Positions 29,329-36,447 of a DNA stretch of 64,000 nt are shown here, one piece after another. Source of the stretch: Longimicrobiales bacterium. Lineage in GTDB: Bacteria; Gemmatimonadota; Gemmatimonadetes; Longimicrobiales; Gaopeijiaceae. Location: contig CBDFIQ010000002.1 in NCBI GenBank assembly GCA_965248195.1, positions 320,001 through 384,000 of the forward strand, written 5' to 3'. The position numbers and the translations under genes are program-made. The notes under the pieces are model-generated. The model ran no database searches. It was given only the letters and a program-made list of their open reading frames with translations, and was not told where the DNA came from. How positions within the stretch are numbered: the first letter of the stretch is position 1; each line of letters starts with the position of its first letter.

Positions 29329-32300
29329 TCACCGGGTTCCGTACCTGAGGAAAAGCACCGGTACCACCACCATGTTCAGCGCCAGGGACGTGAGGATCCC
29401 GCCCAGTACGACCACTGCCATCGGGCTCTGAATCTCGTTCCCGGGCTCCCCCCCTGAGAGCGCCAAAGGCAGGAGGGCTAGGCCCGCAGTCAGCGCCGTC
29501 ATCATGATCGGATTCAGCCGTTCCATCGAGCCCTGGATAACGGCATGGCGGAGTAGCGCTCCCTCGTAGAGCAGGTGGTTGTAGTGGCTCACCATCAGGA
29601 TCCCGTTCCTAACGGCGATCCCGAAGAGGGTGATGAACCCCACTAACGTCGCGACGTTGAGCACTCCCCCAGTCATCCACACGGCGATAATTCCGCCTAC
29701 CAAGGCCAAAGGCAGGTTCACCATGACCAGGAGAACCTGGCGAACGGAGCCGAACTCGATGAAGAGAAGCAGGAAGATAGCCGCCAGGGACAGCAGACTC
29801 ATGAGTCCGATCGTGCGCGTGGCCCCGCTCGCGGATTCGAACTGGCCGCCGTATTCAATGTAGTACCCGGGGGGTAGATCGACCGCCGTCTGTACTCCTC
29901 TTTCGATGTCTTCCACTACACTCCCTACGTCCCGGCCCGCAACGTTGGACTGAACTACGATCATGCGCTGGACGTCCTCGCGTGAGATGGCGTTGGGGCC
30001 CATGTCGAAGCGAACATCGGCCAGAGATCCGAGGGTGACCTGAGAGCCGACGGGCGTGTCGATCCTCGCGCGGCGCACGGCTTCGAGGCTCCCCCGATAT
30101 TCAGGTGCGAACCGGACCACGAGATCGAAGGCCCGCTGGCCCTCCAATACTTGGGAGACTGCCTCCCCCGCGAAAGCGACGTCGATGGCATCGGCAAGAA
30201 ACGAGGGCGTCACCCCATAACGTGCCATGGCGGGCCGGCCCATATGCACCCTCACTTGGGGGACGTCCGCTTGCTGCTCCACGGCGACGTCTACTGTGCC
30301 CTCGACCGCCTGGATCACGGTTTCGATTTCCCTGGCCAGCGCTCGTAATTCGTACAGGTCGGGCCCGAAGAGCTTCACGGCGATGCTGGCCCGCGTTCCC
30401 GAGAGCATGTGATCGATCCGGTGGCCGATCGGCTGGCCTATCGTGATCTCCGTTCCCGGTACGGCGGCCAGGTTCGCACGCAACTCTTCCAGAACCGCGT
30501 CGTAGTCGTAGCCAGCCAACTCCAGCCGCGCATCGATCTCGGCGGCGTTTACCCCTTGGGCGTGCTCATCGAGCTCGGCTCTGCCTGTGCGGCGGGCGGT
30601 CTCTACGATCACCGGATGACCCAAAAGGGTCTGCTCAATCCGCCGTCCGAGGGCGTCGGACTCGTCGAGGGAGGTGCCGGGCACGGTGAGGGCACTGATC
30701 ACGAGCGAGCCTTCCTGGAACTCCGGAAGAAACGAACGGCCCAGGAACGGCAGGACGGCTAGCGACGCAACCGAGAGTACGGCGGCACCCGTCACGACGG
30801 GCCGTGGATGTTGGAGGATTCGCTCCAAAATCGTCGCGTAGAATCGCTTCAGCGTTCGCGCTACCCAGCTGTCCTCGTCCGTCTGCATCGCCCTCGACCG
30901 AGGCAGAAGGTAGGTGGAGAGAGCAGGAGTGACGGTGAGCGCGACGATGAGAGATGCCAGGATCGAGACGATGTACGCCAATCCCAGCGGCTGGAGCATG
31001 CGGCCCTCGACGCCAGAGAGAAAGAAGAGCGGCAGGAACACCACCATGATGATCAGGGTGGCGATGACGATGCTCGCTAGGATCTCCTTGGAGGCCCCGT
31101 ATGCCACTTCGCGAACGGGCCTGCGCTCGTCGGGCGCCCTATGTTGATTCTCCCGGAGGCGTCGGAACACGTTTTCCACCACGATCACTGCGTCGTCGAC
31201 CAGTGCGCCGATTGCGATGGCCATGCCGCCCAGCGTCATCGTGTTGATCGTGATGTCCATGAGCTTCAGCGCCAACACGGCCATGATCAGAGAGAGCGGG
31301 ATCGCCAGCACGGAAATGAAGGTGGTTCTGGCGCTCCATAGGAAGAGGAAGAGGATGACGACGACCAGGATCGCTCCGTCGCGAAGCGCCTCGATCACGT
31401 TGTCGACGGCTGTCTCGATGAAGTCGGCCTGCCGAAATATGCTCCGATTGATCTCCATGCCTGCGGGTAGGATCGACTCGATATCCGAAAGCTCCTGGTC
31501 GATCCTCTGAGTGAGCTCGAGGGTGTTCGTGTCGGGTTGCTTTTGTACGGTCAGGATGACGGCCCGTTCGGCGTTGGCCGATCCTTCTCCGAGCCGGGTA
31601 GCGGCTCCGATCCGCACGTCGGCCACATCGCCGATCGTGACCGGCGTCGCTTCCCGCACCGCGACCACAGTCTGTGCGATATCGTCGAGGTGCTGAACCC
31701 GCCCGGTCCCACGGATGAGGTACTCCTGCCCCCGCTGCATGAACACACCACCCGAGGCGTTCACGTTGGAGCCTTCAGCCGCCTGCAAAACGTCCTGAAG
31801 ACTGACGTCGAAGGCGGCCAGCTTGGCTGGGCTGACCAGAACCTGATACTGTTTGACGTCCCCTCCCAGAGGAATCACTTGGGCCACGCCCGGGACCGCG
31901 AGCAGACGCCGTCGGATCGTCCAGTCGGCGACGGAACGCACATCCATGTCCGATACCGCACCTGTCCCAGTCACTGCGATCAACATGATCTCACCCATGA
32001 TGGACGAGATCGGGGCAAGGACAGGGGCACCCACGCTCTCAGGAAGCCCCGATGCTACGAGCTGGAGCTTCTCGTTCACGATCTGCCTGGCACGGAAGAT
32101 GTCAGTGCCCCAGTCGAACTCTACCCAGACAATGCTGATGCCCTGGGACGTGGAGGAGCGAACCCGGCGTACGCCGGTGGCGCCGTTTACGGCGGTTTCG
32201 ACCGGGAAAGTAACGAGGGTTTCCACCTCCTCGGGCGCCATCCCGTGTGCTTCGGTCAGCACGGTCACCGTGGGGGCAGTCAGATCCGGGAAGACGTCCA

Positions 32301-32409
32301 CGGGCATGCGGCCGGCCGTGATGGCTCCGGCGACCAGGAGCAGGGCAGCCGAGACCAACACGAAGAAGTGGTTGTCGATGGACCAGCGGATCAGGTTACC
32401 TAGCATCAT
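29329..32409 (-). CDS. CusA/CzcA-family heavy-metal RND transporter
   Basis: PVDVFPDL, NTMTLGGMAIAIGALVDDAVIVVEN, RRTGRAELDEHA, GFITLFGIAVRNG, RLNPIMMTA. Confidence 0.92.
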   Translation of the reverse strand: MMLGNLIRWSIDNHFFVLVSAALLLVAGAITAGRMPVDVFPDLTAPTVTVLTEAHGMAPEEVETLVTFPVETAVNGATGVRRVRSSTSQGISIVWVEFDWGTDIFRARQIVNEKLQLVASGLPESVGAPVLAPISSIMGEIMLIAVTGTGAVSDMDVRSVADWTIRRRLLAVPGVAQVIPLGGDVKQYQVLVSPAKLAAFDVSLQDVLQAAEGSNVNASGGVFMQRGQEYLIRGTGRVQHLDDIAQTVVAVREATPVTIGDVADVRIGAATRLGEGSANAERAVILTVQKQPDTNTLELTQRIDQELSDIESILPAGMEINRSIFRQADFIETAVDNVIEALRDGAILVVVILFLFLWSARTTFISVLAIPLSLIMAVLALKLMDITINTMTLGGMAIAIGALVDDAVIVVENVFRRLRENQHRAPDERRPVREVAYGASKEILASIVIATLIIMVVFLPLFFLSGVEGRMLQPLGLAYIVSILASLIVALTVTPALSTYLLPRSRAMQTDEDSWVARTLKRFYATILERILQHPRPVVTGAAVLSVASLAVLPFLGRSFLPEFQEGSLVISALTVPGTSLDESDALGRRIEQTLLGHPVIVETARRTGRAELDEHAQGVNAAEIDARLELAGYDYDAVLEELRANLAAVPGTEITIGQPIGHRIDHMLSGTRASIAVKLFGPDLYELRALAREIETVIQAVEGTVDVAVEQQADVPQVRVHMGRPAMARYGVTPSFLADAIDVAFAGEAVSQVLEGQRAFDLVVRFAPEYRGSLEAVRRARIDTPVGSQVTLGSLADVRFDMGPNAISREDVQRMIVVQSNVAGRDVGSVVEDIERGVQTAVDLPPGYYIEYGGQFESASGATRTIGLMSLLSLAAIFLLLFIEFGSVRQVLLVMVNLPLALVGGIIAVWMTGGVLNVATLVGFITLFGIAVRNGILMVSHYNHLLYEGALLRHAVIQGSMERLNPIMMTALTAGLALLPLALSGGEPGNEIQSPMAVVVLGGILTSLALNMVVVPVLFLRYGTR

Positions 32410-32416
32410 CGACGCC

Positions 32417-33937
32417 CTAGTGGCTGTGGCCGCCCGCAAAGGCGCCACCGGACAAGGAGGCGAGGCGAACCTGATAGGCGCCCACGGTCACGACCCTCTC
32501 CCCGAGGTTGAGCCCAGCCAGGATTTGGGTTCGAGTCCCGTCACGGGCACCCAGCGTAAGGGCCCGACGCACAAAGGTTTCACCACCGGTCTGTACGTAT
32601 GCCACTGCGGTTCCATTGTCATCGAGGATAGCGTTGTTGGGAACGGCTAACCCGTTCGCCACCCCCCCGATGGGCACGGTCGCCTGCGCCAACTGGCCGA
32701 AGGTGAAGGACCCTTTCGAGGACGCAACCTCGAAGACCACCGGCACGGTGCGAGTCTCCGGGCTCATGACGCTTCCGACCGATAGACGCCGGGAGGTCAC
32801 GAATACTTGGTCCGAGTCCTCCGTCGTAAACGTGGCCCGGGCTCCCTCGGGGACACTCGTCGCCGTCGAGGCCGACATCTGCACGCGGAGCCACGCTGTC
32901 GAAGGATCCACGATGGTAAAGAGGGGCTCGCCGGCCTCCACACGGCTGCCAGGCAGAAAGCTCCGCTCCGCGACTACCCCAGAGATCGGAGCTCGCAGGC
33001 TCAAGCTGTAGTCACCGGCCGTGCCCCCACCCATGGCGTCCAGTTCGGCGCGTGCGACCTCCAGGTCATGACGGGCTTCTTCGAGGCGCGTCCGGGAAAT
33101 CGCTCCGGCCTCGACAAGCCGCTCACTACGTTGGACTTCCCGCACCAGCCGCTCAACTCGGCCACGTGCCTGGGCAAAGCCGCCCTCCTGAGCGGTGGGC
33201 GCAAGAACAACCAGGATCTGTCCCTCCTGGACCGGTTCACCGACCGATGGAGCGTTGCGGTTCTTGTCGGCCGGTGCGATCCCGTCCACCAAGGCGCTCA
33301 CTTGGACGAGCGCCCCATCAGGGGGAACGATCTCGCCCGGCGCCGGGACGGTCCGTTGAACCTCGTGCTCCGCTGCCGGCTCCAGCGCAAATGGAATCAC
33401 CCACTGCTGCTCCTTCAGGAACGCGATCCCCCCATCCTCATCCGCATCCTCGATCGCGAGTGCCTCCTCGAGGCGGGAAAACACGGTGACCCCCGAAAGC
33501 ACATGCCGGCTGTTCACTTGCGGGCTGGCGAGGGAAAGTTCTACTCGGTAGGTACCGGCCTCCCCCACCAGTGGATCGAGGAGGAAGATCCCGTCCCGGG
33601 CCGGAGCCTCCAGCAGGAAGGTCTCGACCCGGTTCTCTTCGCTCCTGAAGGTGACGGTCAGGCGTCCTGAGCGAATTGGCTGGAAGTCCTCCATATGCGA
33701 GAGGTGAATCGCCCAATTTCCGGTTTGCTGCCCGGCAACGGGGTGGGGATATTCGAGGAAGAGTTCGGTGGAGTCGTTCCACTGGGTCACCACCACCACG
33801 CCGATCTCCGGTTCCTGGACGTCGGTATCGGGGCCACCACAGGAACTGCTCGCGAGGGTGAGTCCGGCCAGGATCGACGCTCCAACCCTTCCGTCCATCA
33901 TCATTCGGAGTACGGACCCAAGGCGTTTGGCGATCAT
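32417..33937 (-). CDS. RND periplasmic adaptor (CzcB-like)
   Basis: LRAPISGVV, ETRTVPV, C-terminal GHSH; Cys in SSSC is a possible lipobox. Confidence 0.88.
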   Translation of the reverse strand: MIAKRLGSVLRMMMDGRVGASILAGLTLASSSCGGPDTDVQEPEIGVVVVTQWNDSTELFLEYPHPVAGQQTGNWAIHLSHMEDFQPIRSGRLTVTFRSEENRVETFLLEAPARDGIFLLDPLVGEAGTYRVELSLASPQVNSRHVLSGVTVFSRLEEALAIEDADEDGGIAFLKEQQWVIPFALEPAAEHEVQRTVPAPGEIVPPDGALVQVSALVDGIAPADKNRNAPSVGEPVQEGQILVVLAPTAQEGGFAQARGRVERLVREVQRSERLVEAGAISRTRLEEARHDLEVARAELDAMGGGTAGDYSLSLRAPISGVVAERSFLPGSRVEAGEPLFTIVDPSTAWLRVQMSASTATSVPEGARATFTTEDSDQVFVTSRRLSVGSVMSPETRTVPVVFEVASSKGSFTFGQLAQATVPIGGVANGLAVPNNAILDDNGTAVAYVQTGGETFVRRALTLGARDGTRTQILAGLNLGERVVTVGAYQVRLASLSGGAFAGGHSH

Positions 33938-33982
33938 CGTCCAATCTCCGGCGAGGGGATCATCGTCCGATCTCCGGCGAGG
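33932..33982. repeat. Tandem duplication (26-bp period) of the TolC/adaptor junction
   Basis: gatcatcgtccaatctccggcgagg and gatcatcgtccgatctccggcgagg, one mismatch. Confidence 0.9.
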
Positions 33983-35258
33983 TGGTCTCAGCTTCGGGGC
34001 CGGCGTCGAATCCGCCCATGGCGCGCTCGAGGTCGTAGTACGCGATCCACAAATCGGACCGGAGCTTCGCCTCGGCGGAGTGAGCATCCCGAAGTGCCCG
34101 CGCGGCGTCCAGAAGCTCCACGAGCGCCATCTCACCAGCGTCGTACGCCACTTGGGCGATCTCCAAAAGGTCCGGATCCCCACCCAGGATGTCCTCCTCC
34201 AGAAGAGCGCTACGGAGTTGCAGGCTGCGATAGGACTCGATGGCTTTTCGCAGATCGGCCTGCACCTGCCGTCGAGTCAACTCGAGACGCTCCTCGGAAG
34301 CCCGGATCTGCGCCTCGCTGGTCGCCACGGCTCCGCCACGTCGATCGAAAAGGGGGAGGGGAACGGATAGACCGAGGAAGGCGCCACTGAAGCCGTCCGA
34401 CTGGCGCTTGTACCCACCGGTGGCCGTTATGTCCGGGATACGCTCCGCACGAGCCAGTCGGCTGCCGGCCCTGGCCGCCCCCACCTCCGCGTCGGCTGCA
34501 ACCAATTCGGGTCTCCGGTCGATCGCGCTCTCCAGGACGCGATCCAGGTCCAACTCGAGGGGCGGGACACCGAGTAGCTCCAGGGGGGCCACCCGGATCG
34601 TTTCCTCATTCCCCGACACCTCCCCGTCCGGGAAAATCAACAGAGCGAGGTCTCTTTGGGCGGCCGATGTGGCCAGTCCAGCCTCGGCGAGCAGATTCTC
34701 GTAGCGGACTCGCTCCACCCGGATTCGCTGTAGGCTGTAGAGCGAGATGTCCCCTTCGGCTTCCCGTATGGCGGCGTTTCGTGCACCCTGACGAAAGACC
34801 TCCGTAACTCGTTCGGTCATGGCGAGACGGTCCTCTGACAAGCCGGCTTCCACGTAGGCTCGCTTCACCTCGAAGAAGAGACTGGCGCTGTCGGCGCGCA
34901 CCCGCGCCCGAGCGGCTTCCAGGGCCCATCCCGCCGCGTCCGCGCGCGCGCGCCGCTCCCCAGGGAGTGGAAAGCGCTGGGCCAGGTTCACATACGTCTC
35001 AGAGTAGTTCAGGCCATCCCGGGACAGAGGCTCGTGCGTGACGGCTACCGCAGGGTTCGGGAACGCGTTTGCCTGACGCGCGACCTCCTCAGCCTCCGCT
35101 TCCCTAGTGTGGGCGAGGCGGAGGGCTGGATTGTTCTGTAAGAAGAGTTGGAGCGCTTCATCCAGACTTACTCGGCTCGGGGCCTCTTGCGCATGTATGG
35201 CGCCGGGCCATGAGCCGAGGGCGGCGGCCAGCAAGAGCATCTTGGTCGTGTGGTTCAC
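33960..35258 (-). CDS. TolC/CzcC-family outer-membrane efflux channel
   Basis: Signal peptide; SLDEAL...NPAL, RRPEL, LSVPLPLFDR, AYDAGEMALVELLDA; GTG start after GGAG. Confidence 0.88.
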   Translation of the reverse strand: MNHTTKMLLLAAALGSWPGAIHAQEAPSRVSLDEALQLFLQNNPALRLAHTREAEAEEVARQANAFPNPAVAVTHEPLSRDGLNYSETYVNLAQRFPLPGERRARADAAGWALEAARARVRADSASLFFEVKRAYVEAGLSEDRLAMTERVTEVFRQGARNAAIREAEGDISLYSLQRIRVERVRYENLLAEAGLATSAAQRDLALLIFPDGEVSGNEETIRVAPLELLGVPPLELDLDRVLESAIDRRPELVAADAEVGAARAGSRLARAERIPDITATGGYKRQSDGFSGAFLGLSVPLPLFDRRGGAVATSEAQIRASEERLELTRRQVQADLRKAIESYRSLQLRSALLEEDILGGDPDLLEIAQVAYDAGEMALVELLDAARALRDAHSAEAKLRSDLWIAYYDLERAMGGFDAGPEAETTSPEIGR

Positions 35259-35374
35259 AAGCGTTGCTCCGGAATTGTTGTGCCGGTTCAGCACCGCCTG
35301 GGTGGGCGGCAGCCGAAACGGCTCTGATCCAGGGATGTAGGGGTGGGTGTCCGGGCGCCGGCGGGCGCTCGGAA

Positions 35375-35710
35375 TCAGACGGGGAGAGGTGGGGCGCGTG
35401 GAGAGGCCGAGGGGGGAGCGCGTTCTCGAGGGAGGTCGAGCTCGCGGCGCACGACATCCAGTGCAATGACCACCGGAGGATCGGCGAGGGCGGTCGTTTC
35501 CGCGGGCACCGCTAGTGAGATTGGACCCGCAGGTATTCGGTCCGTCTGCTCGGTCAGGACGACCCCGTGGTCGTGGTGCTCGGGGGCGACCAACTGGTAG
35601 CTATCATCACCGGCCACTCTGTGGCTGTGGGATGGCAGGCCCGTTCCCAGTGCTCCGAGGATGAGGAGCAGAAGGCCGGACAACAGCCGTTGAGAGGGTG
35701 ATCGTCGCAT
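35375..35710 (-). CDS. Small exported His-rich leader protein with C-terminal RAPP motifs (DUF2946/CruR/CutF-like architecture)
   Basis: MRRSPSQRLLSGLLLLILGALG...SHSH...EHHDHG...RERAPPSASPRAPPLPV*, 116 nt upstream of the TolC gene. Confidence 0.75.
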   Translation of the reverse strand: MRRSPSQRLLSGLLLLILGALGTGLPSHSHRVAGDDSYQLVAPEHHDHGVVLTEQTDRIPAGPISLAVPAETTALADPPVVIALDVVRRELDLPRERAPPSASPRAPPLPV

Positions 35711-35769
35711 GGCGAGTATCATTATGGGCACGCCAGGCTGAGTCAAGCGGGGACCCATCCGCTCTGGAG

Positions 35770-36447
35770 TCAGCCTCCCGCCGAATCGCTGCTGGTGTCA
35801 TCCCCCATCTCGTGCTTGAATCCCATGTACCAGTGCGACCCGTCGCAGAAGGGTTTGTTGCGGGATCCACCGCAGCGGCAAAGAGCTTGGCGCTCACGGG
35901 AGTCGTACGCCTCGCCATCGCCCGCTTCCACTTGCAGACCGCGTACGCTGTAGGGCGCATCTTTTGCCACGGTGATACTAGGCCCCTCGGGGTGCTCGAC
36001 AGGCTCGGGAGAGCCTGGCATCGAGTAGCTCAGAGCCCCGGACGGGCACAAGCTCACCACCCGGATGATCTCGTCGGCCTCGGCTCCGTTTGGATCGATC
36101 CACGGCTCAACGCCCAACTTGAACACTGCACTCAGCTTATCCGTGCACACCCCGGCGTGGGCACAGCGGCTGCGATCGTCGTGAATCGTGACGCCCTCAG
36201 CCGCGTACTTCTGAGCTCGATCCGCTGCGGTGTCTTTGCTGGCAAACTCCTGACCGTTGAAGTTGTTGCTCTTGTGCGTCCCGTCGCAAAACGGTTTTCG
36301 GCTGGATCCCCCACAGCGACAGAGGGAATACGCCGGCGGAGCCTCGATGGCGCCGCCCTCGTGATCGAGGATCGGCACTCCTCCCTCCACCCGGTAGGGA
36401 CCGCCGGTCAGCACACGGATTTTCTGCTCGTTCGTCGCGTCAGCCAT
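35770..36447 (-). CDS. Tandem CDGSH iron-sulfur protein with a central divergent ferredoxin domain
   Basis: LCRCGGSSRKPFCDGTH, CAHAGVC...CPSGAL, LCRCGGSRNKPFCDGSH. Confidence 0.9.
   Translation of the reverse strand: MADATNEQKIRVLTGGPYRVEGGVPILDHEGGAIEAPPAYSLCRCGGSSRKPFCDGTHKSNNFNGQEFASKDTAADRAQKYAAEGVTIHDDRSRCAHAGVCTDKLSAVFKLGVEPWIDPNGAEADEIIRVVSLCPSGALSYSMPGSPEPVEHPEGPSITVAKDAPYSVRGLQVEAGDGEAYDSRERQALCRCGGSRNKPFCDGSHWYMGFKHEMGDDTSSDSAGG

Follow-up and report, generated by a model that had tools for sequence, protein, structure and literature searches.

A 111-amino-acid open reading frame (ORF) at 35375..35710 on the (-) strand of the window, that is, of the whole 64,000-nt stretch of DNA that was analysed, encodes a leader peptide that in all likelihood stalls its own ribosome and controls the metal-efflux operon that follows it. 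Its two histidine clusters probably sense a divalent metal, and the sequence features of the locus favour, with some reservation, an output mainly by Rho-dependent termination rather than by exposure of the Shine–Dalgarno (SD) sequence. The complete model, a cis-acting ribosome-arrest upstream ORF (uORF) whose metal-held stall would block Rho and permit transcription of the pump, seems to us slightly better than an even proposition.

The leader has 51 close homologues, and its family 86 representatives at 50% identity. All features below are given in window positions and lie on the (-) strand unless stated otherwise. Translation confirmed the ORF as originally predicted, with 111 residues, HSH at 28–30, HHDH at 45–48 and no Cys. 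The signal-like N-terminus that had also been claimed (residues 1–26, 35633..35710) fits with a predicted helix at residues 5–23, a hydropathy of 2.27 over 15 residues and the nearly invariant G24; the N-terminus is basic. The AlphaFold model (pTM 0.26) shows helix 5–23 only and predicts no fold for the mature part. A Foldseek search of this model against the PDB returned 0 matches, and the leader matched no Pfam or NCBIfam profile (NCBIfam none at E up to 1). His cluster 1 (H28-S-H30) is encoded at 35621..35629 and His cluster 2 (H45-H-D-H48) at 35567..35578. The C-terminal tail, RERAPPSASPRAPPLPV followed directly by the stop codon (translation of 35375-35710), ends in RAPPLPV and holds a first motif, R97-A-P-P (35411..35422; R-x-P-P in the family), and a second, R105-A-P-P (35387..35398), the likely main arrest site. 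When all six-frame ORFs of at least 60 aa in the whole 4.86-Mb genome were searched for R[AG]PP within the last 25 aa, the leader was alone among the 245 ORFs found in having two such motifs. A longer, 127-aa start of the leader was ruled out because the −35/−10 boxes of the promoter (see below) would lie inside the added codons. Tat export was ruled out as well, the RR not being conserved among homologues and lacking the residues that follow it in the Tat consensus.

Across 94 aligned leaders with a mean column identity of 35%, H48, P100, R105, P107 and P108 are invariant (94/94), and conservation reaches 90% or more at G24, R97, P99 and A106; H28 and H30 fall outside the 90% columns, though they are invariant in 36 close sequences. 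The last motif is RAPP in 79 of the 86 representatives, RGPP in 3, RPPP in 3 and missing from 1. At the upstream site R-x-P-P is found in 79/85 representatives (exact RAPP in 51), with a spacing to the last motif of 8 residues in 58 and of 9 in 21. The double RAPP of the original prediction is thus real in the window's leader, which has two, whereas family-wide the first site is the looser R-x-P-P. Cys is absent from the mature part in 73/85 representatives and CxxC occurs in 1/86. The distance from His cluster 2 to the Arg of the last RAPP is 59–61 residues in 64 of the 70 representatives scored, and it stays fixed while the middle of the leader diverges, a pattern expected of a nascent-chain ruler. 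His cluster 2 lies ∼ 60 residues from the active site when the ribosome is at the last RAPP, which is roughly the combined length of the tunnel and the translocon. The idea that a double motif marks efflux was rejected: two RAPP motifs are present in 47/51 efflux and 0/47 uptake homologues (see below), but these represent two lineages only. Also counting against it, the upstream site is reduced to PP(P) in many of the divergent leaders, 17 in all, that are described at efflux loci in the next paragraph but one, and tandem RAPP/RGPP is known from uORFs before SecD and TonB receptors. Weak matches to the leader family in G203 and G300 were judged spurious.

The leader profile matched 11/401 genomes of the phylum, 35/401 of the order and 9 metagenome loci; homologues occur in the order and class of the window, and one homologue record is a Gemmatimonadota genome. 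A TolC gene lies downstream of the leader in all 47 homologous loci that have downstream DNA (an insertion intervenes in one and TolC is truncated in another), and the order TolC-MFP-RND is kept in 29/29 leader loci long enough to judge. The leader–TolC gap is 116 nt in the window and 91–149 nt in a set of 46 loci, from which L008 and L023, whose contigs stop within the leader, L027, which carries an insertion, the duplicate L012 and G575, at a contig edge, were left out. It had been asked of the original prediction whether RAPP, the His clusters, their spacing and the synteny recur in homologues. All four are kept, which makes a stalling, metal-sensing leader the best reading. At one locus (L054, G567) an insertion sequence of ∼ 810 nt, which has inverted ends, encodes its transposase in split form and is taken to be IS5-like, sits at the leader stop codon and parts the leader from hairpin 1 (see below) and TolC, a natural uncoupling.

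The synteny was also approached from the pump, taking 40 of 63 matches to adaptor homologues. TolC was undetected in 10 of these loci and upstream DNA was absent in 1. Of the remaining 29 TolC loci, 17 have a divergent leader that is rich in His and ends in RAPP, and no RAPP leader was found at 10 related pumps (genera g2, g3 and g58; L079, L082, L099–L101, L104, L106, L107, L109 and L114). Before the related TolC genes of L092 and L093 (G008, G017), His-rich ORFs end in TDLSPP(T/I)A and not in RAPP, possibly another type of arrest tail. At L133 (G021) a member of the leader family precedes a DFG-type RND gene with a lipoprotein-like outer factor, beside a CopC gene. No recurrent regulator gene was found among 92 neighbouring proteins of 26 leader loci; the scattered neighbours include one DtxR-like gene, kinases, DUF4198 (twice), HupE/UreJ, CDF, ZIP and CopC. 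For the window itself, a scan of 7 neighbouring proteins revealed no regulator, in agreement with the earlier statement that a metal-sensing transcription factor is not adjacent. The product of the upstream gene (35770-36447, (-)) combines a Fer4_19 domain with two iron-sulfur domains of the CDGSH type; we do not count this gene as part of the unit because it is kept in only 4 homologous loci.

The operon consists of an outer-membrane factor (TolC/OEP, 33960..35258, GTG start at 35258; PF02321, E 7.7e-43), a periplasmic adaptor (MFP, 32417..33937; TIGR01730 above cut-off) and a heavy-metal RND transporter (29329..32415) that scores 846 bits against TIGR00914 (CusA/CzcA family; cut-off 701) and is NieA/HME5-like. 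The predicted tolC-adaptor-czcA order 116 nt downstream of the leader was therefore correct as to gap, TolC, adaptor and RND, but the pump is not a CzcA in type: the CzcA (HME1/HME2) signature DFG-x3-DGA-x3-VEN is missing from TM4, which reads AIGALVDDAVIVVEN, and the protein looks Ni-type. All 28 TM4 motifs examined among homologous loci share this motif type. The motifs HAQGV and HRIDH of the window pump resemble HAEGVH and HRLDH of NieA, described as a putative nickel pump (PMC7060636). Nickel or cobalt as the pump substrate is our guess from this likeness to a pump that is itself putative; one leader-family member precedes a DFG-type pump, which counts against it.

A sigma-70-type promoter, TTGACT-17 nt-AATGAT (35718..35746; 1 site versus 0.1 expected in shuffles), ends 7 nt before the ATG of the leader. 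In a survey of 43 of the 46 loci (the other 3 have no assigned start), TTGAC occurs at −40..−30 in 35/43 leader loci versus 3/860 control windows, and an SD-like motif precedes the leader start in 0/43. From the promoter position and the missing SD we infer that the mRNA is leaderless, with a start predicted at or beside the ATG. A CGTA motif at the leader loci, which we take to be an ECF promoter consensus element, was considered and rejected as an ECF promoter, a conserved −35 not being seen by eye. The 4 RNA-labelled runs that were examined are contigs of mixed relatives, which carry no information on transcript strand, ends or level.

The last 17 codons of the leader (35378..35428) are G-poor, C/U-rich and weakly structured, and form a candidate Rho loading site or anti-SD. 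The G deficit at silent sites amounts to a z of −3.5 in the window and averages −2.28 over the 46 loci, being negative in 46/46; the loci are related, and the codon table of G000 served for every one of them. Controls gave 0.04 (213 Pro-rich windows), 0.12 (1075 gene ends) and −0.54 (37 TolC ends), the leader body ranged from −0.33 to 0.18, and the tail G-count z of the 17 divergent leaders is −1.74. TolC gene ends are negative in 31/38 cases, so the sign of the deficit is weak and only its size separates the leader tail. The tail is also less structured than synonymous versions in 43/46 loci. A canonical rho gene is present in the genome; a second, Rho-like gene (G000:C2:1495372-1496511) scores below cut-off. 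No intrinsic terminator was found at the leader locus, and an Rfam scan of the region gave 0 matches at E up to 1.

Hairpin 1 (35350..35373) follows directly after the stop codon, with z below −2 in 32/46 loci and 7 consensus pairs in 17 close loci. Some 9 nt past it lies a conserved 9-nt motif (35333..35341, consensus CGTACATCC), present with at most one mismatch in 18/46 loci versus 0.7% of shuffles. The consensus for transcription pausing is given as G-10, Y-1, G+1 (PMC12288461), a layout that fits 24/43 loci when G is counted at −11 or −10; this reading is partly circular because C-1/G+1 belong to the motif used for aligning. The CGTACATCC site is pause-like, and polymerase may pause there. 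Hairpin 2 (35279..35322) is a predicted fold with 8 consensus pairs in the 17 close loci, 4 of them with compensatory changes, and has z below −2 in only 17/46 loci. The full intergenic consensus of the 17 close loci comprises two hairpins and 15 pairs, 5 of them compensatory, and leaves unpaired the invariant GGAG ribosome-binding site of TolC (35267..35270); RNAalifold on 36 diverse post-stop regions returned no consensus pairs. Two RNA pairings that had been claimed are not conserved. The short hairpin agccgtttcggct is present (35311-35323), but the predicted fold places it within a single arm of a longer stem-loop, and the 8-bp pairing over the stop codon appears in the predicted fold, but with all 8 pairs in just 2/46 loci and at least 7 in 13/46.

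These features are consistent with a model where a metal (probably Ni or Co) would bind to the His clusters while the nascent chain is being exported and so prolong the arrest, the metal-bound chain holding the ribosome at the C-terminal RAPP. The stalled ribosome would cover the C-rich tail, so that Rho could not load and the pump genes would be transcribed. In the metal-free state, export would pull the chain through and the ribosome would depart, whereupon Rho could catch the polymerase paused past hairpin 1. Leaders with RAPP or RGPP arrested in 7/7 cases tested from Streptomyces; on E. coli ribosomes most Streptomyces RAPP peptides gave no arrest. Since a minimal RxPP can arrest (PMC10951233), the first R-x-P-P may be a real second stall point; it could instead be a tunnel-binding part that strengthens the last RAPP. 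The RNA of the leader looks CruR-like (rut-like tail, long gap, Rho), yet an exporter needs the polarity of CutF, and we propose that metal prolongs the stall only because the pump should be induced. Against the model, the stall would mean ON here while metal relieves the stall of CruR, and prolongation of a stall by His-bound metal is a proposal. The 10 related pumps that lack a RAPP leader and the 2 loci whose His-rich ORF ends in SPP also weigh against it.

The same arrest peptide might instead act on translation, the CUCC-rich tail pairing long-range with the TolC SD until a stalled ribosome frees it in a CutF-like manner. In folds of the naked RNA the tail pairs with the SD with P above 0.5 in 37/46 loci, so its bias does not single out Rho, and CTCC occurs 125 times versus 37 expected. 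Pairing probability is 0.72 versus 0.37 for synonymous tails (18/23 loci tested), and holding the coding tail open lowers the median cost of opening the SD from 12.2 to 8.9 kcal/mol, whereas at the window's own locus this cost rises, 6.2 to 10.5. The duplex itself is no better than with synonymous tails (24/46), a locus's own tail performs only weakly better than foreign tails (rank 0.60; 28/46), and the partner site of the SD is scattered from −76 to −3. A fixed anti-SD helix was ruled out on this scatter and on weak covariation. Moreover, the TolC SD lies ∼ 100 nt from the leader stop and is unpaired in the intergenic consensus, beyond the reach of CutF-style melting. We regard a translational output as unlikely and prefer blocking of Rho.

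The genome encodes a second leader of 111 aa and the same build (G000:C2:621754-622089, (+); L022:2755-3090). It has a signal-like start, C-x-H-x-HHDH-x-x-C, a single RAPP, a C-rich tail and a post-stop hairpin, with TTGACA 36 nt before the ATG. The genes that it heads encode an exported protein of no assigned class, a binding protein of the ZnuA type and an ABC-3 permease. Its homologues end in a single RAPP without exception (47/47).

That a leader of this build heads a ZnuA/ABC-3 uptake operon bears on another reading, in which the arrest is real but metal is not the inducer: either metal would relieve stalling, by analogy with CruR, or the leader would monitor export capacity, as SecM and ApdP do, with His only tuning it. 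CruR provides the precedent for relief by metal, and folding outside the membrane usually pulls on the nascent chain. The His clusters, however, are kept at a fixed distance from RAPP, the operon is a heavy-metal exporter and CutF is a precedent for metal-induced stalling. We judge this reading improbable, and metal-prolonged arrest remains our preferred one. Its most elaborate form is a Cys-free, two-step sensor that inverts CruR: Ni or Co bound by His residues exposed to the periplasm would lock the ribosome at the tandem RxPP/RAPP on a leaderless mRNA, blocking Rho and inducing an efflux pump that has no transcription factor, while the single-RAPP sister leader would shut a Zn/Mn uptake operon off. 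We put this forward as a speculation, with doubt outweighing belief; if true, one chassis would give opposite metal responses.

A third reading, which we think very improbable, is that the leader is a CzcI-like exported metal-binding protein acting in trans on the pump, its Pro-rich tail having no regulatory role. CzcI does precede czcCBA, and quenching of the pump has been reported for it (PMC10127602), but it lacks a C-terminal proline motif, the best-conserved part of the leader. No folded domain is predicted for the leader, and both the hairpin and the bias at silent sites suggest that it acts in cis.

The family touches on how the same arrest motif might serve metal-off control of uptake and metal-on control of efflux. 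According to the available portions of the literature, a metal response has been tested only for copper/cysteine leaders (CruR, CutF), yet hundreds of His-rich RAPP leaders precede efflux pumps. The present family is a clean test case, its ligands being invariant, its spacing fixed, its promoter defined and its tail a candidate for Rho loading, and the uptake leader of the same genome is a built-in comparison. The conserved tandem motif, the predicted leaderless promoter, the rut-like tail and the uptake counterpart together make this a good test system.

CruR (Bp2923 of Bordetella pertussis, DUF2946) stalls at RAPP and shields a C-rich rut site, so that polymerase passes; copper relieves the stall (PMC9426467). 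Like the leader, it is the first gene of a metal operon, begins signal-like, has only three residues after its RAPP and a fixed ligand-to-RAPP spacing, and precedes a long intergenic region with a C-rich unstructured tract; it too folds poorly (PMC9426467). By composition, the leader's tail would qualify as the unstructured tract with C over G on which Rho acts in CruR. CruR differs in its ligands (CxxC 45 residues from RAPP, compared with His at ∼ 60), in having one RAPP, in its Cu uptake operon, in the relief of the stall by metal and in a signal peptide that is dispensable (PMC9426467). The C-terminal RAPP of DUF2946 recurs in the leader family (79/86 representatives), but the CxxC ∼ 45 residues before it does not, the leader being without Cys. 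The DUF2946 profile (PF11162) gave 0 matches for the leader, 1/94 members at E 0.057 and nothing over cut-off in the genome; language-model neighbours of the leader were auto-named DUF2946 at 0.95 and share no common Pfam family. The leader would work like CruR and CutF, yet it falls outside DUF2946. An ORF of the DUF2946 family stands at the head of czrCBA in Caulobacter.

CutF of Rhodobacter capsulatus stalls upon copper binding and melts a stem-loop over the SD (PMC9973294; bioRxiv 10.1101/2025.02.05.636593). It resembles the leader as proposed here in that the nascent chain senses metal during export and the gene that follows serves detoxification, and its metal-induced stalling is the polarity needed here (PMC9973294). 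Its CxxxC and its PPP tail, rescued by EF-P, are different (PMC9973294; 10.1101/2025.02.05.636593), and it acts via a stem-loop over the SD, whereas the TolC SD of the leader is ∼ 100 nt away and outside the local stem. A stem hiding the SD near the stalled ribosome was not seen; intergenic SD partners occur in 3/46 loci. The leader does pass three of the filters used for CutF-like proteins by Ozturk 2023 (<150 aa, PP in the last 15 residues, same-strand neighbour <1000 nt); for a further one, an N-terminal signal peptide, it shows a basic N-terminus and a hydrophobic helix. That study names outer-membrane efflux (TolC) genes as the commonest neighbours of CutF-like proteins, and its His-only clusters 14 and 17 share His-only ligands and a Pro-rich tail with the leader and have a signal where the leader has a signal-like N-terminus; Ni/Co is proposed as their metal (PMC9973294). 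These clusters, compared here by description only, lie beside HupE/UreJ and not TolC-RND (PMC9973294). Ozturk 2023 also places CzcI, without a Pro tail, among CutF-like proteins (PMC9973294). CzcI of Cupriavidus metallidurans is likewise small, exported and encoded ahead of an RND metal pump, with czcI2 leaderless, but it has no C-terminal proline motif and is described as acting on the pump protein (PMC10127602, PMC9973294); in the leader the Pro tail is invariant. ApdA and ApdP are also small and exported and share the arrest core RAPP, but precede secDF and monitor protein export (PMC10951233).

Our searches of the literature listed no experiments on a RAPP leader of the His type upstream of an efflux pump, and we found no mention of a tandem or double RAPP in the available parts of PMC10951233 or PMC10987492. 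The main text of Fujiwara 2025 does not mention efflux, TolC or czc (PMC12992588), and no efflux leader was found among its arrest-tested peptides as far as these are set out in the portions available (PMC12992588). Its source data, however, contain at least 530 RAPP uORFs before TolC, at least 620 before RND adaptors and at least 50 before CusA/CzcA, as well as tandem RAPP/RGPP before SecD and TonB receptors (PMC12992588). Many of the catalogued RAPP uORFs are, like the leader, His-rich without CxxC, and one row (MSR21050.1) has the motifs of the leader family before a TolC gene (PMC12992588). The stalling metal sensor first proposed for this locus is therefore the best reading after the conservation tests, but its novelty was overstated: existing catalogues already contain efflux TolC genes preceded by RAPP leaders, leaders with His as sole ligand, and tandem motifs. 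What this analysis adds is a conserved sigma-70 promoter so positioned that the mRNA should be leaderless, a tail that is poor in G, lacks structure and looks like a Rho loading site, and a hairpin immediately past the stop codon.
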